DNA of 64,000 nt, taken from Dehalococcoidia bacterium (GTDB lineage Bacteria; Chloroflexota; Dehalococcoidia; UBA6926). The position numbers were made by a program, and so were the translations under genes. Below, piece by piece: positions 23,267-50,149 of the stretch (its first letter is position 1; every line of letters begins with the position of its first letter). The stretch covers positions 128,001 through 192,000 of the forward strand of contig CAXXET010000006.1 of assembly GCA_963666115.2 (NCBI GenBank), written 5' to 3'. The notes below the pieces were generated by a model. The model ran no database searches and had not been told where the DNA came from. It saw only the letters and a program-made list of their open reading frames with translations.

Positions 23267-25972
23267 ATGATGCGCGGCATTGTGTGGGTCACACTGACCG
23301 TTGGCGCCCTCGCCTTTGCACTCGCCGCCCTGACCGCCTGCCGGGCCCCTGACCCCACGCCCACTCCCACCCCAGCGCCAACACCGCCACCCACCCCCAC
23401 CCCAACGCCCACGTCCACCGAGCAGCTCAACCAACAGGCAGCCTGGCTCGCCAACCCCCCGGACGCCGCCCACTGGATCGCCAGAACCGCCATCCGTCGC
23501 ATCGCCGTGGAAGATGAAACCCTGGGGCAGCAGGTTGCCGCTCTGCCATGGAGCGTCGATGGCATAACCGCAGATGAGGCCGGCGTGCTGGACGATCTCT
23601 CGTGGCTGCTACAACAAGACCCCGCCATCGCCGCAGCCGTGCTGGACTTCTCATGGATGTCCGCAACCGCGAACATCACCGCAGATGACCGCCGCGCGCT
23701 CCGCGCAGTCCGCGCCGCCGTCGACGCGGATAGCGCCCTCGGCGCAACCCTAGCCTCCTACCCATGGTTCGAAACGCCCGTCACCCCCGAAGGTGCCGAC
23801 GCACTGGAAACCCTAGCCGAACTCGTCGCCCCGGACTTCCAGTCGCAGACCGTCACCGGCATCGGCGCAATGCGGCTCCGGCCTCCATCACCCACCGAAC
23901 CCCCACACCTCGAATTCGCGCAAGAACTAGCGGAGATCAACTGGCTCCAGGACGAAATAACCGGGGTCGAACCAGAGGCGCTCAACGCCTGGGCCGAGTT
24001 GATTCAAGTCGAAGAGCCGAGCGGAGACGCGGCCCTGGAAACAGTGTGGCGCTACAACTGGACGCGTGACGACGCGACGCAAGCAGAAGTAAAGTTCATC
24101 AGTGACCTAAGCGAAGTGGCTGCATCAACCGATGATCGCAATGCAGACGCGCTCGAGACAATCATGGCGTATGGCTGGGTGAGGAACGGCATCGCTCAAT
24201 CCGAAAGCGGGTGGATACTGCGTTACCAACCCCTGCTGGAGGATGCCGGCCCGGAGGACGCGGACGCGCTGCCCCTCATCCTGGACTATGCGTGGGTGAG
24301 GGACGGGCTCCGAGCGCAAGAGGTGGGCCATTTGTCGTCGCTGCGTTCCATCTTCCGCTACAGTTCCGCTGAGAACGCTCCGGCAATCCGTACGGTCTTC
24401 GGGTACCCGTGGTTGGCGGATTCGATCACGTCGGATGAAATTGCGGTGCTGAGAGACATCGCGAGTGCGCTGTCTGCGACCGAGACCGTGGGCGCGGCCC
24501 ACGTGAACAAACTCCTTGGTTACGGATGGGTCTCAGACGACATCACCGCTGACGAGTCAGCCGGTTTCGGCCTGCTGTCAGACACTCTGCGGATGCTTGG
24601 GCGGGATTACCCGGAGGCCGCGCAGTCCGTCCTCGCGTATGAGTGGGTGCAGGATGACCTGGTGGATTCCGACCTGGTTTCGCTGCGCGCGCTCTTTTCA
24701 GTCTTTAGGCATCCTAGAGACCAGACGGGCGACTTCACTGTGGCGCTAACCGCCCGGCCATGGCTCCAGGACGGCCTTGACGAGGATGAGTTGGCCCTGC
24801 TTGGACTCTTCGATCATTCCCTGAGATCAGTCCCTGCCGGCACAATCATGCCCCCTGCGCTTGCCGCCTACCCGTGGCTGGATGGCGGCATTTCAAGTCG
24901 GGAAGAGCAGTGGCTTATCGACTTCCTGCAGGTACTGGCTGCCGGTGTTCTGCCTGACGGCTTCGACGCGGTCCAGTTCTCGGAATTGCCGTGGTTCCAG
25001 GACGGCATCGATGAATTCGAGGCATCGGCAACATCACACCTCGCGTGGGACTCCACGCTCCGAGACCCGGACATCCTCAGCAAGGAGTGGTTCCAGGACG
25101 GCCTGTCTGAGCAAGACATGGTGCTCCTGAGGGCCCTCGTCGACGCCAAGTGGCGCTCTGAACACCACTATCCGGACTTGCTGGATTCGCCCTACATAGC
25201 CAACAAAACACTCACATTGCTGCACAGGGAGTTGGAGGTCTATGTTGTCGGCTCCACGCAGTTCAAGGCCAATGACCCGACGATGGGTCTGATTGAGGAC
25301 ATTGCCCTCAAACTCGAAGAGTTCATGGCGCTGCCGTTCCCGCGAGACAACATCGTCATCTTCTACTGGCAGCCTGCCTGGAGCGAGGGGCAGACGCCCC
25401 GGTTCGGTCTCGGCCACGCCGGATTGGCATTCTTTACCTTGGCGCCCCCGCACCACAACCGCAATTACCACCTGGCCGTCTTCCATGAGATGGCTCACGC
25501 ATACTGGGGCGGCCACACCGGCGCGCCGCCTTGGTGGAATGAAGGAGCCGCCGGTTTCCTGCCGGACTACGCCCGCGATGCCCTCGGCCAGGAAACCCTG
25601 GACGAACGGCGCGCCGACCTGCTTGAGGACACGGAGCGCGAGTGCTGGAGTTGGCGCATCGCCAACATCTCTGAGTACTACCACATACAAGAGACGAACC
25701 GCCCACTCGCGGAACGCCGCAGCATCTGCATCTACGCCTTTGGCGAGCTCTTCCTCATGGAGATGTACCTCCTCCTCGGACACGACGCCGTCTCCACTGC
25801 CATGCGCCAACTCTACGTGGACGCCCGCGACTCAGACTGGCAAGACCCGATTACAGACCAAAAAATCTACGATGCCTTCCTAGCCAACACCCCCCAGGAC
25901 AAACTCGAAGACTTCCACAACCTCTTCGACGACATCCACGGCGGCGCCAAAGTCACCCTCCAGGACTCCTAA
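23267..25972 (+). CDS. Large lipoprotein: W-x-x-D-G helical repeats plus C-terminal gluzincin (HExxH) peptidase domain
   Basis: Lipobox LTAC, PT linker, ~14 [YL]xWxxDGIxxxE repeats, FHEMAH...WWNEGAA. Confidence 0.8.
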   Translation: MMRGIVWVTLTVGALAFALAALTACRAPDPTPTPTPAPTPPPTPTPTPTSTEQLNQQAAWLANPPDAAHWIARTAIRRIAVEDETLGQQVAALPWSVDGITADEAGVLDDLSWLLQQDPAIAAAVLDFSWMSATANITADDRRALRAVRAAVDADSALGATLASYPWFETPVTPEGADALETLAELVAPDFQSQTVTGIGAMRLRPPSPTEPPHLEFAQELAEINWLQDEITGVEPEALNAWAELIQVEEPSGDAALETVWRYNWTRDDATQAEVKFISDLSEVAASTDDRNADALETIMAYGWVRNGIAQSESGWILRYQPLLEDAGPEDADALPLILDYAWVRDGLRAQEVGHLSSLRSIFRYSSAENAPAIRTVFGYPWLADSITSDEIAVLRDIASALSATETVGAAHVNKLLGYGWVSDDITADESAGFGLLSDTLRMLGRDYPEAAQSVLAYEWVQDDLVDSDLVSLRALFSVFRHPRDQTGDFTVALTARPWLQDGLDEDELALLGLFDHSLRSVPAGTIMPPALAAYPWLDGGISSREEQWLIDFLQVLAAGVLPDGFDAVQFSELPWFQDGIDEFEASATSHLAWDSTLRDPDILSKEWFQDGLSEQDMVLLRALVDAKWRSEHHYPDLLDSPYIANKTLTLLHRELEVYVVGSTQFKANDPTMGLIEDIALKLEEFMALPFPRDNIVIFYWQPAWSEGQTPRFGLGHAGLAFFTLAPPHHNRNYHLAVFHEMAHAYWGGHTGAPPWWNEGAAGFLPDYARDALGQETLDERRADLLEDTERECWSWRIANISEYYHIQETNRPLAERRSICIYAFGELFLMEMYLLLGHDAVSTAMRQLYVDARDSDWQDPITDQKIYDAFLANTPQDKLEDFHNLFDDIHGGAKVTLQDS

Positions 25973-25980
25973 CCCTCCCG

Positions 25981-26160
25981 CTCACCCTAAGCACCACCCC
26001 CGTTCACCCTGAGCCTGTCGAAGGGTGAACCCCCACCCTCCCCTTTTCCCCGCAAAACCGGGAATCCAGCCCTCCCCCCCCCCGTCATTCCGGCGAAAGC
26101 CGGAATCCATCGGGCACCGTCATCCTGACGATCTGTCATTCTGAGCGCAGCGAAGAATCC
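25981..26160. repeat. Mosaic cluster of REP-like elements (B, C-related, C, A)
   Basis: Four different palindromes in ~180 bp between convergent genes. Confidence 0.8.
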
Positions 26161-26169
26161 ACCATCGCC

Positions 26170-26787
26170 CTAGGCGCCAGTGACCCACACATAAATACTG
26201 GATGCTAACAGCGTAGGCGCCAATATGCTCCATAGCAGAGCCCCCATGAATGGCCAAAAATGCCGTCGAGGCAATGCCGTCACTCTTCCTGGCAGATAAA
26301 TGTCATTCCACTCCCTGGGGCCGGACACCCATCGTCTTGCATTATTCCACATAACAAACTCTATTAGGACGGCGACTCCACCGAACAATGCAAAAAATAG
26401 TGAAAGGGCCATCATATCACCGCGGTCTGCATAACTGGAAAGGATGATCGTGACCGCAACAAAAATCCCATAGGATACAGTGAAGAGAGCCAATGGACAT
26501 ATGAACCACACGATGATAATCAATCCATATGATATCTCGGTTAGACGATTGCTTGAACGCCACCCTAGGAAATTGGCTATGAGGAAACACCATGGTAGAA
26601 AAAGGGCAATTGACGCAGCAGTGCCGCCTCCAAATGCCTTGAAGACAGGCATACCCTCCCTGTGAGCCAGCCATGCAGTGATTGCGCCCGCTGCGGGAGA
26701 CCAGATCATCCCAACTACCGCCAGGATAAGGATTGGTGAAAGGAGGAGTAGAGGCACCATGAAAAACCTTAGGAGATCAAGCAGCAT
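26170..26787 (-). CDS. Low-GC integral membrane hypothetical protein
   Basis: 5-6 hydrophobic segments; AT-richer than flanks; start likely MLLDLL at 26787. Confidence 0.65.
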   Translation of the reverse strand: MLLDLLRFFMVPLLLLSPILILAVVGMIWSPAAGAITAWLAHREGMPVFKAFGGGTAASIALFLPWCFLIANFLGWRSSNRLTEISYGLIIIVWFICPLALFTVSYGIFVAVTIILSSYADRGDMMALSLFFALFGGVAVLIEFVMWNNARRWVSGPREWNDIYLPGRVTALPRRHFWPFMGALLWSILAPTLLASSIYVWVTGA

Positions 26788-26911
26788 CACTTTGCTCCAC
26801 AATCTGGACAAGGCAGGCGATTAAGCCGAACAACGCGAGAATTGCCACAACCCACGCCGCTTTCCCAGGGAAAGCCGTCAGCGCTCTCCGACGTCCGCCG
26901 CGTTCTCGCAT
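26777..26911 (-). CDS. Putative 44-aa single-TM peptide
   Basis: MRERGGRRRALTAFPGKAAWVVAILALFGLIACLVQIVEQSDAA; stop overlaps the next gene start. Confidence 0.35.
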   Translation of the reverse strand: MRERGGRRRALTAFPGKAAWVVAILALFGLIACLVQIVEQSDAA

Positions 26912-27048
26912 CACATCCTGGGACGACCTGATCGGTGACTCCCTCGTCCCCTATGCCGACACTTGTACCCCTCCCTCCGCAGTTCTGTCAAGCACCCACC
27001 CCCCCCTCACCCCGCCACCCCCCGTTCACCCTGACACCCCCCCCCGTT

Positions 27049-27071
27049 CACCCTGAGCCTGTCGAAGGGTG
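27049..27071 (+). repeat. REP-like family B copy
   Basis: Exact match to 23181-23203. Confidence 0.85.
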
Positions 27072-27096
27072 AACCCCCACCCCCTATACTGAACCC

Positions 27097-28866
27097 ATGA
27101 CTACCACCGCGCATGGCCGCCCCTTCCGCGTCGCCCTCGCCCAAATCAACCCCACCGTCGGCGACATCGAAGGCAACACACGCCTCATCATCGACCACAT
27201 CCAACGCGCCCAGGACGCCCAGGCGGACCTCGTCGCCTTCCCGGAGCTCTGCGTCACCGGCTACCCCCCCGAAGACCTCCTCTACAAAGACTCCTTCCTC
27301 CAAGCCGCCGACGATGCCCTCCAGCAGATCATCCACGCCTCCCACAACATCACCGCCATCGTCGGCTACCCCACCCCCACCACCCCCCCGTACAACGCCG
27401 CCGCCGTCATCCACAACGGCCAACTCATCGACGTCTACCGCAAAATCTTCCTCCCCAACTACAGCGTCTTCGACGAAGAGCGCTACTTCGCCCCCGGTGA
27501 CACCTCCCCCGTCTACCACATCGGCCCCGCCCGCATCGGCGTCAACGTCTGCGAAGACATCTGGTTCGACAACGGCCCCACCAACGTCCAAAAGGCCGCC
27601 GGCGCCCAGGCCGTCATCAACATCAACGGCTCCCCCTACTACCGCGGCAAACGCGCCCTCCGCCAGGACATGCTCACCCGCCGCGCCGCCCACAACGGCG
27701 TCTTCCTCTGCTACGTCAACATGGTCGGCGGACAGGACGAACTCGTCTTCGACGGCGCGAGCATGATCCTCGACCCGCGCGGCAGCGTCCTCGCCGCAGG
27801 CAAACAATTCGACGACGACTTCATCATCGCAGACCTCCCCCTCGCCCAAGCCGACGAAGTGCCCCAAACCGCCGTAATCGACCCTAAAGACCCCTTAAAC
27901 GCCGCTTTTAAGGATTACAATGTGATTTTTGTCACCGCCATAGAAGGGAGGGCAGACCGCGATTCCCTATCTGAAACGCAGCACGCTGCCCCAATGGACC
28001 CCCTCGAAGAGGTCTATAACGCTTTGGTCAAGGGAACGCAAGATTATGTTCGAAAAAGCGGCTTCTCCCAGGCCATAATCGGCCTCTCCGGCGGCATCGA
28101 TTCCGCCCTCACCGCAGCCGTCGCAGCCGATGCCCTCGGCCCCGAAAACGTCCTCTGCGTATCCATGCCATCCCAATACACCGCAGATAGGAGCGTCACG
28201 GATGCCCGCGCCCTCTGCGACAACTTTGGCATCCCCTTTGAAATCATCCCCATCGAGGACATGGCCGCCGCCTACCGCGATGGCCTCCGGTCCCTATTCG
28301 CAGGCACGCAGGAAGGCGTCGCCGAAGAAAACCTCCAGGCCCGCGCCCGCGGCAACATCCTCATGGCAATCTCCAACAAGTTCGGCCGCATCGTCCTCGC
28401 AACCGGAAACAAGAGCGAATACGCCACCGGCTACGCCACCCTCTACGGCGATATGGCAGGCGGATTCGCCGTCATCAAGGACGTCCCAAAGACCCTCGTC
28501 TACGAACTCGCCAACTGGCGCAATGAGCAGGCCGGGCGCGACATCATCCCGCAGGAAATCATCGACCGCCCCCCCACCGCCGAACTCCGCGAAAACCAGC
28601 TCGACGAAGACTCCCTCCCGCCCTACGACGTGCTTGACCCCATCCTGGAAGCCTACGTGGAGCGCGATGTCTCCCCAAAGGACATGATCGAAAAACTCGG
28701 CTTTGACAAAGACGCCGTCCAACGAGTCACCAGACTCGTTGACATAAGCGAATACAAACGCCGCCAGGCCGCCCCCGGCGTCAAGATAACCGAACGCGCC
28801 TTCGGCAAAGACCGCCGCCTCCCAATAGTAAACCAATTCAAACCGGATAGGGAAAATCTGCAATGA
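27097..28866 (+). CDS. nadE: Glutamine-dependent NAD+ synthetase
   Basis: Nitrilase domain (FPEL, VCEDIW) plus GLSGGIDSAL, ENLQAR, TGNKSE, EYKRRQA. Confidence 0.96.
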   Translation: MTTTAHGRPFRVALAQINPTVGDIEGNTRLIIDHIQRAQDAQADLVAFPELCVTGYPPEDLLYKDSFLQAADDALQQIIHASHNITAIVGYPTPTTPPYNAAAVIHNGQLIDVYRKIFLPNYSVFDEERYFAPGDTSPVYHIGPARIGVNVCEDIWFDNGPTNVQKAAGAQAVININGSPYYRGKRALRQDMLTRRAAHNGVFLCYVNMVGGQDELVFDGASMILDPRGSVLAAGKQFDDDFIIADLPLAQADEVPQTAVIDPKDPLNAAFKDYNVIFVTAIEGRADRDSLSETQHAAPMDPLEEVYNALVKGTQDYVRKSGFSQAIIGLSGGIDSALTAAVAADALGPENVLCVSMPSQYTADRSVTDARALCDNFGIPFEIIPIEDMAAAYRDGLRSLFAGTQEGVAEENLQARARGNILMAISNKFGRIVLATGNKSEYATGYATLYGDMAGGFAVIKDVPKTLVYELANWRNEQAGRDIIPQEIIDRPPTAELRENQLDEDSLPPYDVLDPILEAYVERDVSPKDMIEKLGFDKDAVQRVTRLVDISEYKRRQAAPGVKITERAFGKDRRLPIVNQFKPDRENLQ

Positions 28867-30044
28867 CCATCTACCTGGATCATGCCGCCACGACCGCTGT
28901 TGATCCCCGCGTTATGGATGTTATGTTACCTTATTTCACCGGCCAGTACGGGAACCCCTCCAGCATCTATGGGCTCGGGCAGGACGCCGCCCGTGCTATC
29001 GACTCTGCCCGTGACCAGGTCGCCGGTGTCCTGAACGCCCGCAACGGCGACATCATCTTCACCGGCGGCGGCACCGATTCCGACAACATGGCCATCCGCG
29101 GCGCCGCATACGCCCTCCGCCGGCACGGCAGCCACGTCATCACCTCCGCCAGCGAGCACCACGCCGTCATTCATACCTGTGAGTGGCTTGAGAACAACGC
29201 CGGATTCTCCGTGACTTATCTGAAACCCGATGGCGAGGGCGTCATATCAGCCGAGCGGGTCGCCGAGGCCATCACGCCTGAAACCACCGTCGTCACCATC
29301 ATGTACGTCAACAACGAAACAGGCACCATCCAGCCCATCCCCGAAATCGCCGCCGCAATCCGCGCCGCAGAAGAAAAACACCGCCATCGCATCGTCTTTC
29401 ATACGGACGCCGTGCAGGGAGCGGGCTACCTGAGCCTCGATGTACAGGAGCTTGGCGTCGATATGCTGAGCCTCTCCGCCCACAAGTTCCACGGCCCCAA
29501 GGGCGTCGGCGTGCTCTTCCTGGACCGTGATGCGCCGTTCCAACCGCAGACCATGGGCGGCAGCCAGGAACGGAATCGACGCGCCGGCACGGAAAACACC
29601 CCCGGCATCGTTGGAACCGGCCTTGCCCTCGAGCTGGCTGAAAGCGACCGCGGCGAGACGATCCCGAACATCGCCCAGCTCGCCTCCCGCCTCGGCAACG
29701 GCATCCTTTCCACAATCCCCGATGCTCACCTCAACGGCCCTCCGCTCGGCGACCCGCGCCGCCTGCCCAACAACGTCAACATCTCCTTCAAGAACATTGA
29801 AATCGAATCCGTCCTGATCAACCTTGACATAATGGGAATCGCCGCCTCATCCGGCAGCGCCTGCACGTCCGGCTCCATCGACCCCTCGCACGTCCTCATC
29901 GCGATGGGCAAGCCGCTTGAACTGGCGCGCAATAGCCTGCGCCTCACGCTTGGACGTGACAATACCGGCGCGGACATCGACCGCGTCCTTGACGTTCTGC
30001 CGGAGACCGTCCGGCGCGTTCGCTCACTGGACAGGAGCCGTTAG
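28863..30044 (+). CDS. iscS: Cysteine desulfurase (IscS/NifS group I)
   Basis: YLDHAATT, HTDAVQ, SAHKFHGPKG, SSGSACTS; ATGA overlap with nadE. Confidence 0.92.
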   Translation: MTIYLDHAATTAVDPRVMDVMLPYFTGQYGNPSSIYGLGQDAARAIDSARDQVAGVLNARNGDIIFTGGGTDSDNMAIRGAAYALRRHGSHVITSASEHHAVIHTCEWLENNAGFSVTYLKPDGEGVISAERVAEAITPETTVVTIMYVNNETGTIQPIPEIAAAIRAAEEKHRHRIVFHTDAVQGAGYLSLDVQELGVDMLSLSAHKFHGPKGVGVLFLDRDAPFQPQTMGGSQERNRRAGTENTPGIVGTGLALELAESDRGETIPNIAQLASRLGNGILSTIPDAHLNGPPLGDPRRLPNNVNISFKNIEIESVLINLDIMGIAASSGSACTSGSIDPSHVLIAMGKPLELARNSLRLTLGRDNTGADIDRVLDVLPETVRRVRSLDRSR

Positions 30045-30111
30045 ACCGTAGGTCGGCGAGAATCCCCTTGCGCCCCCCAGTGGAGGGGTGCGCGTCAGCG
30101 CCGCGATGGTA

Positions 30112-34731: not shown

Positions 34732-36201
34732 TCAGGGGCGGAGGCGGTTTTGGGGCGGGACGACGTATGGGGGGGCGGGGATGACGTGGTGGGGGGGATG
34801 CGCCCCCGCCGAACCTGTCATTCTGAGAGCAGTCGAAGAATCCCCCGCGCAGGCTGGGGCGCGGCGGGAGTCCTGGCGGAGGGTCTGGACGTGGTAGGCA
34901 AAGAAGGCTACTGCGGGGATGATGATGGAGAGCGTGGGGACCAGGGCATCGCCCAGGAAGCCTGACCCCTGGCCGAGTATCTCGCTCAGCACGGCGGCAA
35001 TGAGGGCGACGAGGGTGAAGAGCCATGTGCCGCCGAGGGCGATGAGGGCCACGTAGAGGTAGATGCGCCGGACAAGGCTGCGGGGATCGGCGTTGACGAC
35101 GCGCCACCAGAACGCGGCCCAGAGCGGCGCGCCGACGATGATCATGGTGAGGGCGACAGCAAGGACTTCGCCTTCGCCGTCTGTCGTGGTCAGCACGTCG
35201 CTATCGGTCAAGAGGGTCAGGATGGTGACGAGGAGTCCCATGAGGCCGGGGACGAGGGCGATGAGGCCGACGGCGGACATGATGTATTGGAAGGTGTGGG
35301 ACAGGGGGCGGGCGGAGTCGCGTTGTATGACAGACCAGTGGTAGGCGAGAAGGGCGAGTCCGATGAGGAGGCCGACGGCGGGGAGGATGAACTGCCGGAA
35401 GTAGATAGCGGTTGTGGCGGCATCGTCCGCGCCGACGATTTTGGCGATGACGACGTAGATGGTCGCGCTCGCGCCCCAGAGGGAGAGCAGCGCCCCGCCG
35501 ATGAAGGCGAAACCGTAGAGATAGACCTGCCGGAGGACTGATTCTTCGTCGCCGGTCACAACGGCTCGCCATTGGATTGCCCAGGCGGCGATGCCGACTA
35601 CCGCCCAGCCGGCGGCAGTACGGAGAGGGTCCTGGAAGTCTTGGGCGTCAACGAGGACGTCCGTATCAAAGACAAGGTTGTAGGCGGCATAGGCGAAACC
35701 GTAGGCGATCCAGTAGGTTCCGACGACGGCGGATGTTAGGAAGATGACGCTGAGACCGTAGACGCGCCATCGCTTGACGGTCTGGGCGCGGGAGCCGGGC
35801 TGCCCCTCCAGGTTTTCGCGCCGCCAGAGGTAGTACCAGAGACCGGCGGCGGCGATCACGCCCCCGACGTTTGCGAGCCCGTCAAAATCGCCGGCCACGT
35901 CCTGAACGACGTACAGCGCGCCGGCAAAAACATACAGGGCGGCGAGGGCCAGCGCGCCGTTGACATAAAGTTTTCGCAGCACCGACCCAGCCTCGTCGGG
36001 ATGCCGGGCGACAGCGCGGCTACCAAGGAAGTCATGTCCGAACCAGACGGGAAGGCCGACGATGATCATGGCGATCCACGTGGCCATATCGAGGGTTTCG
36101 AGACGGACGATATCGGTGGCAAGCCCGTACGCGCCCTGGAGGAGGATGGCAAAGGATACAAAGGCCGCCAGGTAAACGTATGAGCGTTGGGGGATGCTCA
36201 T
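34732..36201 (-). CDS. Polytopic membrane protein, DUF5671-like repeats
   Basis: Repeated 'IVGLPVWFGH / LRKLY / VRRIYLY' units; C-terminal tail runs through REP elements. Confidence 0.7.
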   Translation of the reverse strand: MSIPQRSYVYLAAFVSFAILLQGAYGLATDIVRLETLDMATWIAMIIVGLPVWFGHDFLGSRAVARHPDEAGSVLRKLYVNGALALAALYVFAGALYVVQDVAGDFDGLANVGGVIAAAGLWYYLWRRENLEGQPGSRAQTVKRWRVYGLSVIFLTSAVVGTYWIAYGFAYAAYNLVFDTDVLVDAQDFQDPLRTAAGWAVVGIAAWAIQWRAVVTGDEESVLRQVYLYGFAFIGGALLSLWGASATIYVVIAKIVGADDAATTAIYFRQFILPAVGLLIGLALLAYHWSVIQRDSARPLSHTFQYIMSAVGLIALVPGLMGLLVTILTLLTDSDVLTTTDGEGEVLAVALTMIIVGAPLWAAFWWRVVNADPRSLVRRIYLYVALIALGGTWLFTLVALIAAVLSEILGQGSGFLGDALVPTLSIIIPAVAFFAYHVQTLRQDSRRAPACAGDSSTALRMTGSAGAHPPHHVIPAPPYVVPPQNRLRP

Positions 36202-36731
36202 GACGATGCCTCCTGAGCAATTACCGGAGTGGGGGCGGTTTCATCATCGCAATAGTCGTCCCGGATGTGTTCGAGGTTTATTGGCCACTCTGATTCCGCT
36301 ATGCGCCAGTAGCCGTCCTGGGTGCGGTGGAGTTCGAACTCGTTCTCGAACGTGTCGCGGTTGTTCGGGAGTTCAAAGAGATCAGGCTCATCACGGTACG
36401 CAACGCCGACAGTGACGATCACGGTTTCGGAATCGACCTCTTCCACGTCACCGAGCCTGACGCGATAGCGGTCATACGAGGGGGAGGTGATTCTATCGCG
36501 CAGTTCGTCGGTGGCGCACGGGGTGTTGTTTTCCTCTGTCAGCAGCAGAAGGGCCGTGTTGGCGTCCTCTTCGATGACGGCGCGGATGTAGCGCTGGACG
36601 GCGCCCTCGGGGGTGTCCGGGGGGTAGGTGGCTTCCTCGTCGTCGATGAGGCGCGGGAGGGCGACAGCGAGGATGACGAGGATGATTACGCCGGCGACGA
36701 CACCTATGAGTATTTTGGTCGATGAGTCCAT
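36198..36731 (-). CDS. Membrane-anchored hypothetical protein (NTF2-like)
   Basis: N-terminal TM, TPEGAVQRY..A, GYWRI; ATGA overlap with the downstream gene. Confidence 0.7.
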   Translation of the reverse strand: MDSSTKILIGVVAGVIILVILAVALPRLIDDEEATYPPDTPEGAVQRYIRAVIEEDANTALLLLTEENNTPCATDELRDRITSPSYDRYRVRLGDVEEVDSETVIVTVGVAYRDEPDLFELPNNRDTFENEFELHRTQDGYWRIAESEWPINLEHIRDDYCDDETAPTPVIAQEASS

Positions 36732-36801
36732 GGGGACATTTTACATGCGGGCTTAGGGGGGTACTTGACCGATCAGTCGTTGGGCAATATATTGGCAAGC
36801 G

Positions 36802-36822
36802 ATATATCGTATTGCGCTATAT
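36802..36822. promoter_or_regulatory. Putative PadR-type operator
   Basis: ATATATCG-TATTG-CGCTATAT inverted repeat (7/8) upstream of the PadR gene. Confidence 0.55.
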
Positions 36823-36877
36823 GCCCCTCGGAGTATCGAACCGGAGCGGAATCACCTGTGTTATGGAAGGGAGTCGC

Positions 36878-37249
36878 ATGACAGAGCAACACCCAATGCC
36901 CTCGGACTTGCTTCCCCTGCCGGTCTCGCAGCTGCATATCCTGCTTGCCCTGACAACCGGGGACAAGCATGGTTACGCAATCATGAAGGAGATCGAGGCC
37001 TTTACCGGCGAGGGGGTCAGGATGGGGCCGGGCACGCTGTACGGGGCGGCCAAACAGATGTTGAAGGCGGGGTTGATCGAGGAGAGTTTCGAGCGCCCGG
37101 ACCCTGACATGGATGATGAGCGGCGACGCTATTACCGGCTGACCGACCTGGGCCGGCAGACCCTGGACGCGGAGATCGTCCGCATGGAGCGCCTTGCCCA
37201 GACTGCCAGGAAGAAGCAGATGGACGCCATGCAGCGCCGGGGCGCGTGA
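36878..37249 (+). CDS. PadR family transcriptional regulator
   Basis: HGYAIMKEI, GPGTLYG, RRRYYRLT. Confidence 0.92.
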   Translation: MTEQHPMPSDLLPLPVSQLHILLALTTGDKHGYAIMKEIEAFTGEGVRMGPGTLYGAAKQMLKAGLIEESFERPDPDMDDERRRYYRLTDLGRQTLDAEIVRMERLAQTARKKQMDAMQRRGA

Positions 37250-40225: not shown

Positions 40226-40807
40226 TCAGTTTTCGAAGATGGCGGCGACCGGGGTGGTGAATTGGGGGAGGATGTCCTGGCCGGTTAGGGTATCGGTTTC
40301 GTGGAGGAGGACGGGGGGATTGTCGGGGCTGAAGACTTCGATGGTCTTGGTGTTCGGCCAGACGTTCCAGACCAGACGGACGCCGCTGTACAGCCACATC
40401 TGCGCCTTGTCATAGACTTCGTTGGCAGTTTGGCTGGGAGAGACAACCTCAACGGCGAGGTCGGGGACGATATCGAGAAATCCCCGGAAGTCTTCGAGTG
40501 ACGGGAGACGGCCCGCCGCGAAGAAAGCAATGTCAGGCGCGCGTACAGTATCGGGGTTTCTTTCGAGATGGATGCCGGGGTCGCCTGCGAGAACCTTGCC
40601 GATCCCGTTGGTCTTGACAAAGTTATAGAGCAATGCGCCCAGCGCCATCATGACTTCGGCATGGTTTGGATTGTTCGGCATGTCCGGGCAGAATACCCCC
40701 CTGATGAGTTCGCCTCGCCGCTCTTCCTTGCCCAGGTTGTACAATTCGTCCGCCGTCATCGGAACGGTGCCGGCGGGAGTTAGCTGGGTTTTCGTCGTTG
40801 TCGCCAT
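40226..40807 (-). CDS. Uma2 (DUF820) family PD-(D/E)xK protein
   Basis: GELIRG, VRAPDIAF, PDLAVEVVSPS, GVRLVW, GQDILPQF. Confidence 0.9.
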   Translation of the reverse strand: MATTTKTQLTPAGTVPMTADELYNLGKEERRGELIRGVFCPDMPNNPNHAEVMMALGALLYNFVKTNGIGKVLAGDPGIHLERNPDTVRAPDIAFFAAGRLPSLEDFRGFLDIVPDLAVEVVSPSQTANEVYDKAQMWLYSGVRLVWNVWPNTKTIEVFSPDNPPVLLHETDTLTGQDILPQFTTPVAAIFEN

Positions 40808-43421: not shown

Positions 43422-43481
43422 CACTCACCTCCTGCCATAGCCTGACGACACGGCAATAGTAACGCGTTGGCTACGACGATA

Positions 43482-45860
43482 CTATCTGCTAAGCATGTTC
43501 TCTATCGCGTAGTAGAGGTCATCAGTGAAGTAGCGGCGGCCCGTGTCGGGCGGGGTAAACACGAACATGTGCTCCGCAGCATATGGGGAAACAGTATAAT
43601 CTGAGCCTTGCCCAGTGGTGCTGCCGAGTTCGACGGCGTATGCCATGATGGGGTTGTGAGGAAACGGCGTACCCGTGTCCTTTTCAAATCGCAGCGCAAC
43701 CTCTTCAAACAGGTCCAACGTGGGATCGTTGCGGGGGAACTCCGTGTGGCGGATGACGTACAGGTCAACGTCGCCTGCAAGCGGGAAGGCGATGGTTCGG
43801 TGGGCGACGTGGCTCTGTCGCAGCAGGTCTCTGTACTGGGCCCCGGGATGCCGTCGGGCTTCGATCAGGCCAAACAGGGTAACGAATTCCGCCTCGCCTA
43901 TCTGAGTAGTCAGCCATTCCTCGCCGACAACGAAAGCCGGATCGTCCAATGACACACGGGCCATCAAGCCCATCATATTCGCGTCGCGAGCATCGATGTC
44001 GTCCTGGAACCAGGAGACGGAGCCGGCGCTGAAGGTGTTCTGCCTGGCGACGCCTGCGGCCTCTTCGATGAACCGCCGAAACTGGTGTGTCCATTCAATC
44101 TCATCGGCGCTGATGCCGTCCTGGGCCCAGGGGCGGCCGGGGATGGATGCCGCGAGTTCGTCGTCCTGCCCCTGGAGTGCGAGCAGGAGGTCCGCGTACT
44201 CGTCCAGCCACCGACCCTCAGTGCGACTGATGCCGTTCAGCAGCCAGGGGAGGCGGGCCACGGCCGACGCAAGGTCGTCACCATGCAGGTATTGGGTGTC
44301 CAGTATTAGGTGATGAAGATTTCTCAGGCCCAGGACGCTCTGTTCAGACGTTTCGGGGGATTCAGCGTGGGCGTTCTCAATCACGGCGGTGACCGTATCA
44401 GGCGCCAGCGGGGTGACATCGTTGACGAAGTCCAGTATTTCCCGAACGTATTCGCGCTCTATGCCGGGCATACCGTCATCAAGCCACGGAAAGGTGGTGA
44501 GCGTGGGCGGGAGGGTCACCTCGCCGCTGAATCTGGCGTCCAAGAAGCCGGCATACGTGACGAGCAATTCAGTTTCGCCCACGTCCACATCATCCTGGAG
44601 CCAGGGGCGGGCTGTTAGCGTTGAGATGAATTCGGCGGTCTGCGGGCCCTGACTCTCGAATATGATGGCAAGGTTTTTCAACGGCACGACATCCTCAATA
44701 GCGATGCCATCCCGCACCCACCCGTATGCCAAGACAGACGCCAGCACGTCAGGCTGCTCTGCGGCAAGAGATGCGACAGAATCCGCCAGATGTTGGATTG
44801 CAGGAGCTTCCCAGCGGCCGACATCGTCGGAGATCCAGTCGTAGTTGAGGAGAGTCTCCTGATAAGCGCTGGCATCGACATCCTGAATGGCCAGCAAGTC
44901 GGCGAATGCGCGGAGGGCGCGGGTTTCATCGTTATCGAGGGAATCCGCCATCCAGGGATACGTCAGCATTATCTGCAAGGCTTGGGCGTCCTCTGGGCCT
45001 GCCTCTTGAAAGAGCTGTTCAAAGTTGCGCAGGGAATCGTTATCCCCGCCGTCAATGCCGTCTGTGACCCACTGGTATGACGCGACGGTTCTCACGGCGT
45101 CCACATGGTGGTCACCCGCCTCGATGATGAGTCTGGTCAGTTGGCCGACGGCGTCCGACTCCGGGGAGGAGACGGCGTCCTGCATCCAGGGATAGTCCGC
45201 GATGAGACGGGCCATATCGATCCGTTCAGGGGAGGCGGCAGGCGAGATATCAACGCCGGGGACGCCTATCCGCATCGCGCCGATGCCGGTCACCGTGTGC
45301 GCCTGAAAGCCGGGCGCAGCAATGTGAGCGAGCTCTTCCAGGGCTGTTGCCTCATCAGCCGCTGCGCCATCGGGAATCCACTGGTATGAGGCGAGGGTCG
45401 AGCCGAGGTTGTCGTCTACGTCTGCTGCGGCGCGTATGGCGCGAAAGGCGCGGCGATCATCGGGGCTGATTGCGCCGTTGGGGCTCATCCATGGGAGGCT
45501 GAGTACGATGTCCGCAACGGCGGGGACCTCCATCAGCAGCCAAGAGAAGTCGTCAAGCGCGCCGGCTTCTTCGGCGGTGATGCCGTCGGCGACCCAGGGG
45601 AGGGCCGCAATCTCCTCCCCAACTGTGTCATCGCTGAAGCTTATGCGGCGGATTGCAGCCCAGGCGATCCAGTGGACCGTGTCCGGCGGGGATTGGAACC
45701 AGGCGAGTCGTTCGGCGGCAGTTGGCTCAGGGGTTGGGGTGGGGATGGGAGACGGGGTGACGGCGGGGGTGGGGTCAGCCTGACGGCAGGCGCCGAGCGC
45801 GACGACCACGAGGGTAAGCGCGCCCAAGGCCAGTGCGAACCGCAAAACACGGCGCATCAT
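43482..45860 (-). CDS. W-x-x-D-G repeat lipoprotein paralog lacking HExxH
   Basis: Lipobox LGAC, same repeats and TVTGIGAMR motif; ends where the paralogs carry HExxH. Confidence 0.8.
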   Translation of the reverse strand: MMRRVLRFALALGALTLVVVALGACRQADPTPAVTPSPIPTPTPEPTAAERLAWFQSPPDTVHWIAWAAIRRISFSDDTVGEEIAALPWVADGITAEEAGALDDFSWLLMEVPAVADIVLSLPWMSPNGAISPDDRRAFRAIRAAADVDDNLGSTLASYQWIPDGAAADEATALEELAHIAAPGFQAHTVTGIGAMRIGVPGVDISPAASPERIDMARLIADYPWMQDAVSSPESDAVGQLTRLIIEAGDHHVDAVRTVASYQWVTDGIDGGDNDSLRNFEQLFQEAGPEDAQALQIMLTYPWMADSLDNDETRALRAFADLLAIQDVDASAYQETLLNYDWISDDVGRWEAPAIQHLADSVASLAAEQPDVLASVLAYGWVRDGIAIEDVVPLKNLAIIFESQGPQTAEFISTLTARPWLQDDVDVGETELLVTYAGFLDARFSGEVTLPPTLTTFPWLDDGMPGIEREYVREILDFVNDVTPLAPDTVTAVIENAHAESPETSEQSVLGLRNLHHLILDTQYLHGDDLASAVARLPWLLNGISRTEGRWLDEYADLLLALQGQDDELAASIPGRPWAQDGISADEIEWTHQFRRFIEEAAGVARQNTFSAGSVSWFQDDIDARDANMMGLMARVSLDDPAFVVGEEWLTTQIGEAEFVTLFGLIEARRHPGAQYRDLLRQSHVAHRTIAFPLAGDVDLYVIRHTEFPRNDPTLDLFEEVALRFEKDTGTPFPHNPIMAYAVELGSTTGQGSDYTVSPYAAEHMFVFTPPDTGRRYFTDDLYYAIENMLSR

Positions 45861-45961
45861 TACCTCCCTGATGCTCCGGTAGGTTTAGGGGATAGTACAC
45901 CATTACGCCCTCGCTCTAACCCTCCCCCAGAGGGGGGGCGTCCCGATGGATTCCCGCTTTC

Positions 45962-47183
45962 GGAGACCTTTGCGCAACCGTGGTCTCGCCTATTTTGGGG
46001 GACGCAGGTGGCGAGAGGGCGTGTGCTCTGTCAAGAATCGATGGTGTCCGACGGGCTGTCTGGCCGGTCATGTAGGCCCGATTTCAGGGGTGTGGCGGTA
46101 TCCGGCGCTCGGATTGTGGGGTCGTGCCCGCTCAGGCCGGGGCGGGGACGAGGTGAATCATCTTCCTGAGGTTGTAGGCCATCAGCTTCAGGTACATCTC
46201 CACCCGGTTTCGGCGCAAGCCCCGGTAGCGCACGCGACTGTAGCCGTAGCTCCGTTTGAGCGTCCCAAAGACCTTCTCGACCGGGGAGCGGCGCGGCGCA
46301 ATCAGGTCATTCCGCAATTGGAGTCGCGGCGGCAACACCCGCTGATGCTTGTTGGCCCGATGCATGATCCTGTCCTTGATGCCCATCTCCTTCAGCCGCC
46401 GTCGCCGCGCTTTCGATTCGTAGGCGCGATCGCCGTACACCGCCCGCTCATCCCCGCTGATCAGTTCGTCCGCCACCTCGCTCTCATACACCACGGCCGA
46501 TGTGAATTCCGCCTGGCGCACGATGCCCGTCCCCTCGTCCACCCCCGCGTGCGCCTTGTAGCCGAAGTGCGTTCGCGATCCGCGGCCGGTGCGGCTCCAG
46601 CCCGCATCGGGGTCGGTCTCGCTCGATGCGCCAGGCCCCGCGCTCATCGGAGGGCGTCTGACCTGCGCCTCCACCAGCGTGGCATCCATCAATGTCCCCG
46701 ACTTGACGAGCAATCCCCGCTTGTCCAGCTGCGCGCCCAGCTCCTGGAAGAGCGTCTCCGCCAGGCCGCGCCGCCCCAATTCCGTGCGGAAACGGCTGAT
46801 CGTCGAGTGATCCGGCGCGTCATCCTCAAGCCCCAGCCCCACGAAGCGGCGGAAGGAGATGCGATCCGTCAGCGCCTCCTCCATCTGGGGATCCGAGGCG
46901 TTGTACCACTGCTGCAACAGGAGGATCTTCACCATCGTCAGCGGCGGATAGCTCGGCCGGCCCTCCGGCGCCGAATAGATGTCATCCACCAACCTGGCGA
47001 AGCGATCCCAATCGATCTCTGCGCCGATGCGCTCCAAGCGCGTATTCCTGCCGAGCTTCTCCGGCAGCAGCGTCTCGGCCAATGACGGCTGTCCCATCTG
47101 ACGATGCATCGCTCTCCCTCCCCTCACACCATCCGCGCTCACCCCAATTTTGGCCTGACTGGGAGAGTTATGCAAAGGTCTCC
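45962..47183 (-). mobile_element. IS5-family insertion sequence, 1222 bp, 4-bp TSD TTTC
   Basis: TIRs GGAGACCTTTGCGCAAC / GTTATGCAAAGGTCTCC; TTTC at 45958-45961 and 47184-47187. Confidence 0.9.
46132..47109 (-). CDS. IS5 family DDE transposase
   Basis: GRPSYP, LQQWYN.SD, PDHSTISRFR, MDATLV, FGYKAH, YGDRAY, RSPVEKVFG. Confidence 0.93.
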   Translation of the reverse strand: MHRQMGQPSLAETLLPEKLGRNTRLERIGAEIDWDRFARLVDDIYSAPEGRPSYPPLTMVKILLLQQWYNASDPQMEEALTDRISFRRFVGLGLEDDAPDHSTISRFRTELGRRGLAETLFQELGAQLDKRGLLVKSGTLMDATLVEAQVRRPPMSAGPGASSETDPDAGWSRTGRGSRTHFGYKAHAGVDEGTGIVRQAEFTSAVVYESEVADELISGDERAVYGDRAYESKARRRRLKEMGIKDRIMHRANKHQRVLPPRLQLRNDLIAPRRSPVEKVFGTLKRSYGYSRVRYRGLRRNRVEMYLKLMAYNLRKMIHLVPAPA

Positions 47184-47203
47184 TTTCGCGGGAAAAAGAG
47201 GCG

Positions 47204-50149
47204 TTAGGAGTTTTGGATGGTGACTTTGGCGCCGCCGTGGATGTCGTCGAAGAGGTTGTGGAAGTCTTCGAGTTTGTCCTGGGGGGTGTTGGCCAGGAAG
47301 GCATCGTAGATTCTTTGATCCGTAATCGGCTTGATCCAACCGGAGTCGCCGGCATCAACATAGAGTTGACGCATGGCGGCGGAGACGGCGTCGTGTCCCA
47401 AGCGCAGGTACATCTCCATGATGAAGAGTTCGCCAAAGGCGTAGTCGCAAATGCCGCGATCGGCTGCGCGGCCGGGATCAACCTCTCTAAGGTGATAGAG
47501 GTCGGAAATGGTATCGATTCCGCGACTCCAGCATTCGCGCCGGGTGTCTTCAATCAGGTTAGCGCGCCGTTCTTCCAAGGTTTCCTGGCCCAAGGCATCT
47601 CGCGCGTAATCGGGCAGGAATCCGGCTGCGCCTTCCGTCCACCATATCGGGGCGCGTGTGTGACCACCCCAGTACATATGACTGAATTCATGGAAGATTG
47701 CCAAATGGAAATTGGGATTGTATTTGGGCGGAGCGACCGCGACATATGACCCCATCGCAAATGCAACGTTATATTGAGGCTCTTCTCCTGCCTGCAAATT
47801 GGGTTCTATCATCACGGCAAGGGCAAACTCATGGGGGAATCGGACTCCCATAAAATGCTCCAGTTGTGTGATGATCTGTTCCATTAGGTCAAGAGTGGGA
47901 TCATCCGCCGGGAACTCCGTATGCCGGATCCCATAGAGCCTTATTTCGCCGGTCAGGGGGAGTTCGATCATTCGCTCCGCCAAGTGGTATTCGTCAAGCA
48001 AGGCGCGGAACTTATGCTCCGAGCGGGACAGGGCATCAATATACGCCATCAGGACGACACGATCACGCTCAGAACTAACCCCACGGAACCAATCCCAATT
48101 CGTGTTTTCGGGGTTACGCCACGTTTCGGACACTGCTAATCTCGCGACAAGACTTGAATCAAGATAGTCAATGTCGCTCTGGAACAACGGCAACGATCCA
48201 ATTTCTATTGCAATGCTGCGATTCTGTTCACCGCTTTCCTCCAACAGCCGACGGTATTGGTGCATCCATTCACGTTCGTCGGCGGAGATCCCGTCCAGCG
48301 CCCAGGGGCGTCTGAGAATCGATTGCGCCAAGTCTTCATTCTCGCCATCAAGTTCTCTCAGGAAAACAGCGTACTCAGCAAGCCACCACCCCTCGATCTT
48401 GACGAGACCGTCCGACAACCAGGGGAGATGGATGACGTCGTTGGCCAGCTCGCCATAGAGCCGCCTGGCGTCATTAATGGCGCCACTGAACCTCTGGAAG
48501 TTGTAGATCGCGTCCTCGAACTTCTCGTCAGAATCAAGAGCTGTTCCGTCAATGAGGGCATCGACGGTTTCAGGCGCGATCGGAGAGACGTTCTCAATGA
48601 GCCAGAAGGACTCCGCAATGTATATACGTTCACTGATTGCTATTCCATCGTCCAGCCAGGGATAGGTGATTATGCGCGGAGGCATGGTGACGCCGGGAGG
48701 GATATCCCAGCGCAGGAAGCGTTCGTACTCCGCCAAGAGCGTCTCTTCATCCTCTTCCACGCTGTCCTGAATCCAGGGGCGAGAAGTTAGCGCCACAATG
48801 AATTCACCGGTCTCATCACTGCGTTGTTCGAAGATCGGCAGGAGAGCCCTGAGCGAATCCAGGTCGGACTCCACAAGGTCATCTTGCACCCACTCATATG
48901 CGAGGACGGAATCCACGGCCTCCGGGTAATCCGGCCCAAGCAATTGCAGGGTGTCGGACAACGCGCGAATACCGGTTGCCTCGTCGGCGGTGATCGAATC
49001 GGCCAGCCACGGATAACCGAGGAGTGTCAGGACTGCCGCAGAATCATCCGCAGAACTGTTGGCCAGAATGGAACGCATTGAGGCTATGTCGGGGACTTCG
49101 CTCAACTCGAGTCCGTCCGCCACCCACGCATAGTCCAGGATAACGGGCAATGCGTCCGCGTCTTCCGGGCCGGCGTCTTCAAACAGGGATTCATAGCGCC
49201 GAATCCAACCGTATTCTGATCGGGCAATGCCGTCCTGCACCCAGTCATACGCCACGAGTGTCTTTAACGCATCTGCCTGGAGGTCGCCGGCTGATGCAGC
49301 CACTTCGCTCAGATCGCTGATGAAACCGGCCTCCGCCTGCGTCGCGTCGTCACGCGTCCAGTTGTAGCCCCACACCGTTTCCAAGGCGGCGTCTCCGCTC
49401 CGCCCTTCGACTTGAATCAACTTGCCCCAAGCGTTGAGCGCCGTCCTCTCGACCTCAGTCATATCGTCCTTGAGCCAGTCGACTTCAGCAAGCTCCCGCA
49501 GGAAGTCGATGCGCGGCGGTTCCTGCGCCGATGCCGGGCGGAGCCGCATTGCGCCGATGCCGGTCACGGTCTGGGCTTGAAAGTCCGGCGCGACGAATTC
49601 GGCGAAAGTTTCCAGCACATCGGCCTCTTCGAAAGTGACGGCTGCTTCAATCCACGAGTAGGATGCGAGCGTTGAGCCAAGGTTGCCGTCCGCGTCCGCT
49701 GCTGCGCGAACGGCTCGAAGCGCGCGGCGCTCATCCGCGGTGATGTTCGCAGTCGCGCCCATCCACGGAAATTCCAGCACGGCCGTGGCGATGGCAGGGT
49801 CTTGTTGCAGCAGCCACGAGAGATCGTCCAGCACGCCGGCCTCATCTGCGGTTATGCCATCGACGCTCCATGGCAAGCTCGCGACCTGCTGGCCGAGAGC
49901 CTCGTCTTCGACGTTGATTCGCCGGATGGCGGTTCTGGCGATCCAGTGGGCGGCGTCCGGGGGGTTGGCGAGCCAGGCTGCGTGTTGGTTGAGCTGCTCG
50001 GTGGACGTGGGGGTTGGGGTGGGGGTGGGTGGCGGCGGCGTAGGGATGGGGGTTGGCGTGGGGGCGGGCTCCTGGCAGGCGGTGAGGGCGGCGAGCGCAA
50101 GGATGAGGGCGCCAACGGCCCACCCGATCCACACAGTGCGGCGCATCAT
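47204..50149 (-). CDS. Large lipoprotein: W-x-x-D-G repeats plus gluzincin domain (981 aa)
   Basis: Start MMRRTVW at 50149; lipobox LTAC; FHEFSH...WWTEGAA; termini highly similar to the 23267 paralog. Confidence 0.82.
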   Translation of the reverse strand: MMRRTVWIGWAVGALILALAALTACQEPAPTPTPIPTPPPPTPTPTPTSTEQLNQHAAWLANPPDAAHWIARTAIRRINVEDEALGQQVASLPWSVDGITADEAGVLDDLSWLLQQDPAIATAVLEFPWMGATANITADERRALRAVRAAADADGNLGSTLASYSWIEAAVTFEEADVLETFAEFVAPDFQAQTVTGIGAMRLRPASAQEPPRIDFLRELAEVDWLKDDMTEVERTALNAWGKLIQVEGRSGDAALETVWGYNWTRDDATQAEAGFISDLSEVAASAGDLQADALKTLVAYDWVQDGIARSEYGWIRRYESLFEDAGPEDADALPVILDYAWVADGLELSEVPDIASMRSILANSSADDSAAVLTLLGYPWLADSITADEATGIRALSDTLQLLGPDYPEAVDSVLAYEWVQDDLVESDLDSLRALLPIFEQRSDETGEFIVALTSRPWIQDSVEEDEETLLAEYERFLRWDIPPGVTMPPRIITYPWLDDGIAISERIYIAESFWLIENVSPIAPETVDALIDGTALDSDEKFEDAIYNFQRFSGAINDARRLYGELANDVIHLPWLSDGLVKIEGWWLAEYAVFLRELDGENEDLAQSILRRPWALDGISADEREWMHQYRRLLEESGEQNRSIAIEIGSLPLFQSDIDYLDSSLVARLAVSETWRNPENTNWDWFRGVSSERDRVVLMAYIDALSRSEHKFRALLDEYHLAERMIELPLTGEIRLYGIRHTEFPADDPTLDLMEQIITQLEHFMGVRFPHEFALAVMIEPNLQAGEEPQYNVAFAMGSYVAVAPPKYNPNFHLAIFHEFSHMYWGGHTRAPIWWTEGAAGFLPDYARDALGQETLEERRANLIEDTRRECWSRGIDTISDLYHLREVDPGRAADRGICDYAFGELFIMEMYLRLGHDAVSAAMRQLYVDAGDSGWIKPITDQRIYDAFLANTPQDKLEDFHNLFDDIHGGAKVTIQNS

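Follow-up and report, generated by a model that had tools for sequence, protein, structure and literature searches.

Predicted surface lipoproteins of a marine Chloroflexota bacterium that combine a helical W-x-x-D-G repeat arm with an M1-like metallopeptidase domain

The M1 metallopeptidases (PF01433) are built on a thermolysin-like catalytic fold, with an N-terminal β-sandwich and, in most members, a C-terminal helical, ARM-like domain beside it and an exopeptidase motif, GxMEN; among them are the two-domain enzyme of Deinococcus radiodurans (structure 6a8z), tricorn factor F3, LTA4H and ERAP1. The zinc motif of this family is HExxH-x18-E. Other gluzincins, the M60-like/enhancin and SslE-type metalloproteases, are surface-anchored lipoproteins that act on external polymers. 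Tandem helical units of ~33-39 residues that form an extended superhelix are familiar from TAL effectors, BurrH and mTERF, and helical repeats have also been made artificially by design (the DHR series and fibres). In this report, we analyse a 64,000-nucleotide stretch of DNA (“the window”; contig CAXXET010000006.1, positions 128,001 to 192,000, assembly GCA_963666115.2) from a Dehalococcoidia bacterium of the phylum Chloroflexota. It encodes three paralogous proteins, here called A901, B792 and C981, in which a gluzincin-type domain is joined to a long helical arm:

23267..25972, + strand: A901, 901 residues, with a lipobox-bearing signal peptide, a Pro/Thr stalk, a 14-unit helical arm and an M1-like catalytic domain.
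43482..45860, - strand: B792, 792 residues, with a lipobox, a stalk, an arm of 14 units and a catalytic domain of which just the N-terminal half is present.
47204..50149, - strand: C981, 981 residues, with the full architecture and 15 units.

A first-pass annotation, made from the letters of this DNA alone, had described these genes as three lipoprotein paralogs with a Pro/Thr stalk, the motif TVTGIGAMR and a solenoid of ~39-residue W-x-x-D-G units, two of them ending in a gluzincin site, and had not recognized the repeat as TPR, ankyrin, HEAT or LRR. All of these elements are borne out by the results below. We now consider it probable, at roughly 70%, that A901 and C981 are extracytoplasmic, membrane-anchored, M1-like zinc metallopeptidases, the arms of which bind or position polypeptide substrates.

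The proteins share their N-terminal organization, which in A901 is laid out as follows:

23267..23416, + strand: signal peptide with lipobox L-T-A-C (Cys25), followed by the Pro/Thr linker; residues 1-50, modelled with a predicted local distance difference test score (pLDDT) below 50.

In all three paralogs, a lipobox (LTAC or LGAC) lies at residues 22-25 and is followed by a Pro/Thr linker of ~25 residues. The genome encodes both Lgt (PF01790, 173.5 bits) and LspA (PF01252, 128 bits), each above its Pfam cut-off. These features are those of bacterial lipoproteins, and lipidation is predicted. A lipid on the N-terminal lipobox cysteine would anchor A901 and C981, with the linker holding the proteins off the membrane. 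The same combination of lipobox and linker is present in other surface proteins of the window (five SBP_bac_5 proteins and two further open reading frames), and a loose lipobox pattern matches 36 of the 58 clusters that make up the family in a word-indexed search. Export by the Tat route was considered and not adopted, as an RR pair is present in B792 and C981 and missing from A901.

The evidence for a metallopeptidase resides in the C-terminal ~260 residues of A901 and in the corresponding part of C981:

25187..25969, + strand: thermolysin-like (M1-like) catalytic domain of A901, residues 641-901, with strands at 643-725 and helices at 734-890.
25484..25543, + strand: zinc motif of A901, H740-E-M-A-H744...E759, that is HExxH-x14-E, its Glu inside WWNEGAAGF.
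47633..47692, - strand: zinc motif of C981, H820-E-F-S-H...E839, identified as a sequence motif.

AlphaFold2, supplied with a 23-sequence alignment, models A901 at a pLDDT of 83.7 and a predicted template-modelling score (pTM) of 0.63. In this model, residues 643-890 form a β-sheet plus helices, and the catalytic domain ends the protein. Its structural comparison with VIA-align gives 6a8z_A as the best match (Z 18.5, root-mean-square deviation (rmsd) 3.0 over 230 aligned residues), along with puromycin-sensitive aminopeptidase (18.4), tricorn factor F3 (17.6) and LTA4H (17.2), so that the likeness to described M1 enzymes falls at Z 17-18.5. Eleven M1-type entries in all have Z of at least 15.7 and thus rank above thermolysin (12.5). 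The M60 enzymes, which the window proteins would resemble as surface-anchored lipoproteins working on external polymers, are matched at Z 7.5-9 only. The same M1 entries are the top matches in Foldseek (E 4e-3, probability 1.0), with none reaching E 1e-3, and the nearest clusters in the ESM Atlas are M1/MA-like, with scores of 0.86-0.87.

A relative designated P0094 connects this domain to the M1 family by sequence. A901 aligns with P0094 from end to end, through repeats and catalytic domain alike (E 3e-43), and P0094 passes the Pfam Peptidase_M1 cut-off (34.0 bits against 27.7). Because of this pair of results, homology of the catalytic domain to M1 is likely. Conservation across the family also favours a zinc metallopeptidase. 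H740, E741, H744, E759, C793, C821 and Y823 are each at least 90% conserved among the 23 aligned members. The pattern HExxH-x(10-28)-[WFYLI]x(1,2)EG is found in 139 of 199 repeat-bearing proteins; in 130 of these 139 the spacing from HExxH to Glu is x11-14. CxYxxG[EQD] is found in 104 of the 139 too, in each case preceded by a second Cys. In common with M1 enzymes, the domain has HExxH and, in a W-x-E-G helix downstream of it, a Glu, as well as a conserved Tyr ~83 residues after the first His. In fold, then, the domain is M1-like, and probably in descent too, though neither GxMEN nor the flanking domains, both of them defining features of M1, are present.

From these residues a mechanism may be proposed. 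The ~260-residue domain would be a divergent M1-type gluzincin, with zinc held by His740, His744 and Glu759; Glu741 would activate water, and Tyr823, in C-x-Y-x-x-G-E, would stabilize the transition state. The conserved Cys pair could form a disulfide, as expected outside the cytoplasm. Only A901 and C981 contain HExxH...WW[NT]EG. B792 ends (...YYAIENMLSR*) exactly where the other two have HExxH; since the protein stops where the zinc site should be, B792 is predicted to be incapable of binding zinc and would act via its arm only.

The remainder of each protein is dominated by the repeat. In A901, the relevant features are:

23438..25186, + strand: α-solenoid arm, residues 58-640, comprising units 1-3 of 35-59 residues, the TVTGIGAMR loop and then the 39-residue units.
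23846-23872, + strand: TVTGIGAMR motif, residues 194-202; the motif is also found in B792 and C981.

Besides the lipobox, the Pro/Thr run and TVTGIGAMR, the three paralogs share the unit Y-x-W-x-x-D-G-I-x-x-x-E. Its Trp anchors, W-x-x-[DN]-[DGS]-[ILV]-x-x-x-E, recur every 39 residues in 9 of 13 spacings in A901, 8 of 11 in B792 and 8 in C981. The counts of 14 (A901), 14 (B792) and 15 (C981) units include three shorter N-terminal units of 35, 37 and 59-64 residues and one of 79-80 residues. With a profile made solely from units of A901 and C981, B792 reaches 143.4 bits, whereas the highest score among 200 shuffles is 7.4 bits; the repeat thus exceeds chance. Within one protein, units share 13-38% identity; positionally matched units of A901 and C981 share 50-80%. 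The array is thus old and position-specific rather than recently amplified. Across the 23 members, conservation is seen at unit positions 1 (Y), 3 (W), 6 (D) and 12 (E), and at hydrophobic positions 16, 19, 22, 23, 37 and 38. The most variable ones (10, 11, 13, 14, 17, 18, 20 and 28) map to one face of the long helix.

Residues 50-640 of A901 are modelled as all-alpha, each unit consisting of three helices, one of 4 residues at the Trp and two of ~16 and ~10 residues. When modelled alone with AlphaFold2 (residues 222-612), the arm reaches a pLDDT of 87.0 and a pTM of 0.82. TVTGIGAMR occupies the sole low-confidence loop inside the arm (pLDDT below 50 at residues 196-210), and its G200 is invariant in all 23 members; the motif may serve as a hinge, or as a site for processing or ligand binding. 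In the proposed enzyme, the 14-15-unit solenoid would take the place of the classical M1 β-sandwich and serve as an elongated scaffold on which polypeptide substrates are bound or positioned.

The closest structures to the arm in VIA-align are de novo designed helical repeats, 9k81, 5cwf and 7udj among them. The best match has Z 10.8 (rmsd 3.6, 152 residues aligned) and another Z 7.8, below the value of about 13 at which this method is trusted for the relatedness of helical repeats; these proteins are artificial, and no homology to them is implied. Among them, 7udj was designed to bind peptides in extended form. The best natural matches in Foldseek include TAL effectors, BurrH and mTERF (E 7e-3 to 0.5 with the full model, 0.09-0.8 with the arm), and the 35-residue unit that prevails among relatives is near the periods of TALE and PPR repeats, which raises the notion that the arm, as a superhelix that binds nucleic acids, works on DNA or RNA outside the cell. 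We find this very improbable. The likeness is not significant: the E values lie at 0.007-0.8, with no match at E 1e-3, template-modelling scores are 0.1-0.2 and rmsd is near 20 Å. No TALE appears in the top 50 of VIA-align, and Pfam yields no TALE or PPR match, with only weak sub-threshold rows for mTERF. Further, the D/E-rich motif makes the arm acidic, and hence poor for binding nucleic acids. Unlike TALE repeats, the units are modelled here as three-helix elements in which the Trp would be buried and D-G-I-[TS]-x-x-E caps a helix; they are position-specific rather than near-identical, and the proteins that bear them are predicted to be secreted lipoproteins.

The repeat is not assigned to any named family by the curated libraries. 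In the Pfam scan of the three paralogs, with E up to 1, neither TPR, HEAT, ARM, ankyrin, PPR, Sel1 nor LRR is found; an mTERF row is sub-threshold (E 0.32, 10.3 bits). NCBIfam has no repeat-family match for these proteins, and the two libraries together return only low-complexity or sub-threshold rows for them. One such row, NCBIfam SslE, was rejected as a trivial low-complexity match (E 0.43). A Pfam scan of 66 relatives detects no curated repeat family, with one sub-threshold mTERF row (19.8 against 23.1 bits). Several above-cut-off rows for small helical domains on these relatives (TerS_N at 51 bits, SH3DP at 33.5, XPC-binding at 33, Ezh2_MCSS at 31.4 and DUF4351 at 29.7) were rejected as homology; we read them as sums of weak repeat matches, because not one stretch passes singly. 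The ESM Atlas, queried with the arm alone, gives no usable match. Among literature listings and abstracts, neither the repeat nor the architecture is described. The repeat may still be distantly related to some named family that the Pfam, NCBIfam and PDB sequence searches would not reach.

The repeat extends well past these three genes. Of the 58 family clusters, 56 contain HExxH, a single one has a precomputed Pfam domain (LRR families), and the only name given to any of them is “hypothetical protein [Chloroflexi bacterium]”; the long members, of 868-1251 residues, have 10-20 units detectable by pattern. When the 39-column unit profile was run against 1.84 billion representatives, it found 466 proteins at E 1e-3 or better, each standing for one of the library’s 50%-identity clusters, 125 at 1e-10 and 13 at 1e-30. 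Among 140 new top matches to the profile, the commonest unit spacing is 35 residues (401 spacings) rather than 39 (80 spacings), with the consensus L-P-W-V-A-D-G-I-T-E-x-E-R-x-A-L-x-x-L-x-x-I-A-x-x-D-P-x-L-A-x-x-V-L. Given this predominance, the 39-residue unit of the window is a local variant of a wider 35-residue repeat. Pfam searches of 66 of the 140 relatives give Peptidase_M1 once above and three times below threshold, along with two sub-threshold PPC domains. The repeat also occurs with other partners: P0113 joins it to a different gluzincin, a genuine Peptidase_M60 (238 bits), and P0120 to a CAP domain. Names were found for two of 20 clusters looked up. One is a “hypothetical protein” with 8 members in Chloroflexi/Chloroflexota; the other, P0160, is a cyanobacterial Calx-beta protein with a 109-residue spacing, and was rejected as probably an unrelated repeat caught by the short profile.

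The genome holding the window is a small marine Chloroflexota genome of 2.07 Mb in 9 contigs, rated 100% complete, and it contains a fourth, more distant relative outside the window:

G000:C6:242849-244747 (locus L036, 850-2748), - strand: 632-residue protein with a lipobox, a Pro/Thr linker, about three 35-residue W-x-x-D units, HEISH...WLDEG and an extra C-terminal region that has no Pfam match.

Another weak match in the same genome, C3:87820-88140, was dismissed as a fourth paralog, being a small lipoprotein that matches via its lipobox and Pro/Thr linker only; a further weak match lies at C2:28139-28264. In species-representative genomes, ten loci were recovered, all from Dehalococcoidia or Chloroflexota metagenome-assembled genomes, on chromosomes or contigs of up to 4.3 Mb. 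A P0094 query of 401 phylum-wide genomes finds relatives at E ≤1e-8 in 37 of them (9 of 218 genera), often with 2-4 matches per genome. The unit profile, run on the same 401 genomes, matches the own genome alone at E ≤1e-5 per stretch; we judge that search insensitive, because single 35-residue units score low against a 39-column profile.

At E ≤1e-10, the long-arm family is present in 16 of 21 further same-genus genomes and in 0 of 19 genomes from 18 different genera in the same taxonomic family, order or class. This distribution bears on whether the proteins could be housekeeping envelope proteases that mature or turn over the cell’s own surface proteins (lipoproteins or an S-layer), the arm being a rigid spacer. 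A membrane tether, linker and elongated arm would suit such an enzyme, as would the rigidity of the designed rods and fibres that are the closest structures to the arm and the variation of arm length by whole units. However, the family is not found in five of the 21 same-genus genomes or in any of the 19 from other genera, which is unlike a housekeeping gene, and a spacer role leaves the retention of arm-only copies unexplained. We deem this explanation quite unlikely.

Such arm-only copies come to light in the history of the paralogs, for which the pertinent features are:

24883..24884, + strand: junction of a 118-residue deletion in A901 (YPWLD|GGIS), placed by the three-way alignment and the 23 members.
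48290..48643, - strand: the 118-residue block in C981, residues 503-620, common to C981 and B792 and missing from A901.
48994..48995, - strand: one-unit (39-residue) gap in C981 (YPWLADS|ITADE), from the three-way alignment.
23387..23506, + strand: 5' gene-conversion tract, A901 side; 95% nucleotide identity with C981, third-position identity 0.92.
25871..25969, + strand: 3' gene-conversion tract, A901 side; 96% nucleotide identity with C981, third-position identity 0.94.

Three indels separate the paralogs, all of them in register with the units. The 118-residue block consists of the second half of the 79-residue unit and one and a half further units. The first-pass annotation had correctly seen that C981 and B792 share this block. 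The block is no transplant, as it is present in 22 of 23 aligned members and is missing from A901 only. For this reason, the block is ancestral, and A901 lost it by deletion. The collapse of one unit in C981, seen earlier, is evident in the three-way alignment, and the same unit is missing in 6 other members (7 of 23 in all). B792 is without 39 residues, the fifth unit, and most of that unit is absent from 8 further members as well (9 of 23 in all). Since the same gaps recur, the presence of units is best described as polymorphic across the family, in a pattern that fits unequal recombination between W-x-x-D-G motifs and not the transfer of blocks. The length of the arm would be tuned through the in-register loss of whole units.

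The ends of the genes tell of a different process. In alignment columns 41-80, A901 and C981 are 95% identical in both amino acids and nucleotides, with a third-position identity of 0.92 among identical residues; in their last 33 residues the values are 94%, 96% and 0.94. In columns 640-880, their protein identity is 28-47%, and C981 is in patches closer to B792 (60%). Because synonymous sites are near-identical at both ends, these data indicate recent gene conversion between A901 and C981, with mosaic paralogs as its apparent product. The “repeat shuffling” once proposed for these genes therefore gives way to in-register deletions of ancestral, position-specific units and conversion at the gene ends; an exchange of blocks is not supported.

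B792 is not alone in its truncation. P0033 and P0062, which are 46% and 44% identical to it, terminate directly behind the arm, and forms that are reduced to the arm or catalytically dead recur as open frames in several genomes. The persistence of such copies, the M60 and CAP fusions and the variable helix face speak for the arm as a module that has its own function. The persisting copies also lend something to the idea that this is primarily a family of adhesins, in which the arm binds a surrounding polymer, for example an animal host’s extracellular matrix, the peptidase being accessory and dispensable. The copy number, which ranges from 0 to several within the genus and contrasts with the lack of the family in the other genera, would agree with that idea, as would the conversion mosaics and polymorphic unit number, traits of many surface proteins under diversifying pressure. 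So would the habitat data: pieces near-identical to A901 occur in public runs labelled marine metagenome and sponge metagenome (word shares 0.20-0.45), several metagenome contig pieces have 0 letters differing from A901, and many short contigs cover the gene, with no listed piece spanning it. These labels come from coded runs of 4 studies only, and a marine or sponge habitat for the relatives of A901 is a lead and nothing firmer. Retention of HExxH in 56 of the 58 close clusters, and the position of the catalytic residues among the best-conserved columns, argue that the peptidase matters. Thus, we regard an adhesin family as unlikely and favour membrane-anchored metallopeptidases with substrate-binding arms.

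The likely role of such peptidases would be to cut external protein into peptides for uptake. Five tandem paralogous SBP_bac_5 lipoproteins of the peptide/oligopeptide type are encoded in the same window (6234-16269), four with the lipobox LLAAAC and one with AAAAC, each followed by an acidic/Pro/Thr linker. This peptide-binding cluster and the further lipoprotein genes of the window suggest a context for the family. We infer the nutritional purpose from this setting, and catalysis and the binding role of the arm from the features of the proteins themselves.

Several observations weigh against this interpretation, and they deserve to be set out together. The three window proteins reach no Pfam peptidase threshold and have no Peptidase_M1 row at E up to 1. 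Searches of PDB sequences with one protein or with the 23-member profile find nothing, the best hit (E 0.044) being unrelated. The M1 exopeptidase motif (pattern G.MEN) is found in 0 of 223 proteins, the three paralogs included, so that the action may be that of an exo- or an endopeptidase. As a further departure from M1 enzymes, the window proteins have neither the β-sandwich nor the ARM-like domain; the place of these is taken by an N-terminal lipobox, the Pro/Thr stalk and a solenoid of 14-15 units. The Glu spacing, x14 in the paralogs and x11-14 across the family, is shorter than the x18 of M1, and the role of this Glu as a ligand is deduced from sequence. The geometry of the zinc site, the Cys-Cys distance and the position of Tyr823 likewise derive from sequence spacing only; more broadly, the case for enzyme activity, zinc binding and a substrate is made from sequence and model. 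As to the arm, variability is to be expected wherever a helix face is exposed and is no proof of a binding surface, and the pTM of the full model makes the placement of the arm relative to the active site uncertain. Finally, a BLAST comparison of the window’s open reading frames with 10 related loci reveals no conserved neighbour genes, and the proximity of the SBP_bac_5 cluster may be coincidence.

A conserved operon partner was likewise rejected, as the 10 loci share with the window just scattered housekeeping genes. The first-pass annotation had put the locus forward as a candidate for an undescribed system. As a system of several genes, this does not hold; the catalytic fold is a known one, and the protein family that carries it is unannotated.

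The surroundings of the genes can be described briefly. The G+C content of the window is 59-68% per 2-kb bin. Its other genes are housekeeping or unrelated (PolA, NadE, sigma-70, DnaG, xanthine-dehydrogenase-type subunits, phosphotriesterase and others). Between C981 and B792 lies a mobile element:

45951..47194, - strand: insertion sequence (IS) of the IS5 type, 1244 bp, with a DUF772 + DDE_Tnp_1 transposase and 28-nucleotide imperfect terminal inverted repeats.

The real start of this transposase lies inside open reading frame 46132-47553 (minus strand). The element begins 9 nucleotides past the C981 stop codon, its other end is ~90 nucleotides upstream of the B792 start, and it has three copies in the genome (100%, 94% and 94% identity across the full 1244 bp). 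It stands outside the family and splits an otherwise tandem, same-strand pair, C981 and B792, which would be ~99 bp apart without it. The C981 frame is open upstream to 51382, a 1392-residue extension that is Arg/Pro-rich and antisense to open reading frame 50306-51109 (+ strand). The true start of C981 is 50149 (MMRRTVW...LTAC), as the first-pass annotation had it. The antisense frame itself is lipoprotein-like and encodes 267 residues, divergently from C981, with a lipobox-like VGGC, a Pro/Thr/Ala-rich linker and no Pfam match.

Divergent from A901, at 21170-23062 (- strand), is the gene for a 630-residue lipoprotein (LAGC lipobox) with a borderline fn3 match (25.0 bits, cut-off 25); two homologues, at 29-40% identity, are found upstream of a family member in another genome (locus L024). 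A gene for a putative Uma2-family endonuclease is at 40226-40807 (- strand), and its homologues (48-49% identity) occur just downstream of family members at loci L021 and L024, in two copies at the latter. At 34732-36201 (- strand) is a membrane protein with three DUF5671 stretches, adjoining a divergent PadR-family regulator (36722-37249, + strand).

It is tempting to carry the idea of a substrate-binding arm further. The W-x-x-D-G arm might be a modular, register-keeping solenoid for polypeptide recognition, a protein-substrate analogue of TALE, PPR and designed peptide binders. Each unit, with the variable face of its long helix, would contact a short stretch of an extended chain, and the arm would thread or measure the substrate into the M1-like site. 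Gain and loss of units, together with gene conversion, would re-programme specificity, and the arm-only copies would be stand-alone binders. We offer this as speculation, and think it doubtful as matters stand. If it is true, these bacteria possess a natural, evolvable peptide-binding repeat scaffold that is confined to Chloroflexota, and a sequence-reading peptide binder would be of wider interest.

The joining of a known catalytic fold to a helical repeat that is unnamed in Pfam, NCBIfam and the PDB defines an unannotated protein family. Its arm, as modelled, is a new natural α-solenoid of very regular, well-predicted geometry, in which nature has already sampled length variants by whole units. 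For uncultured marine and sponge-associated Chloroflexota, the family represents a candidate apparatus for the degradation of protein at the cell surface, adjoining genes for the uptake of peptides.

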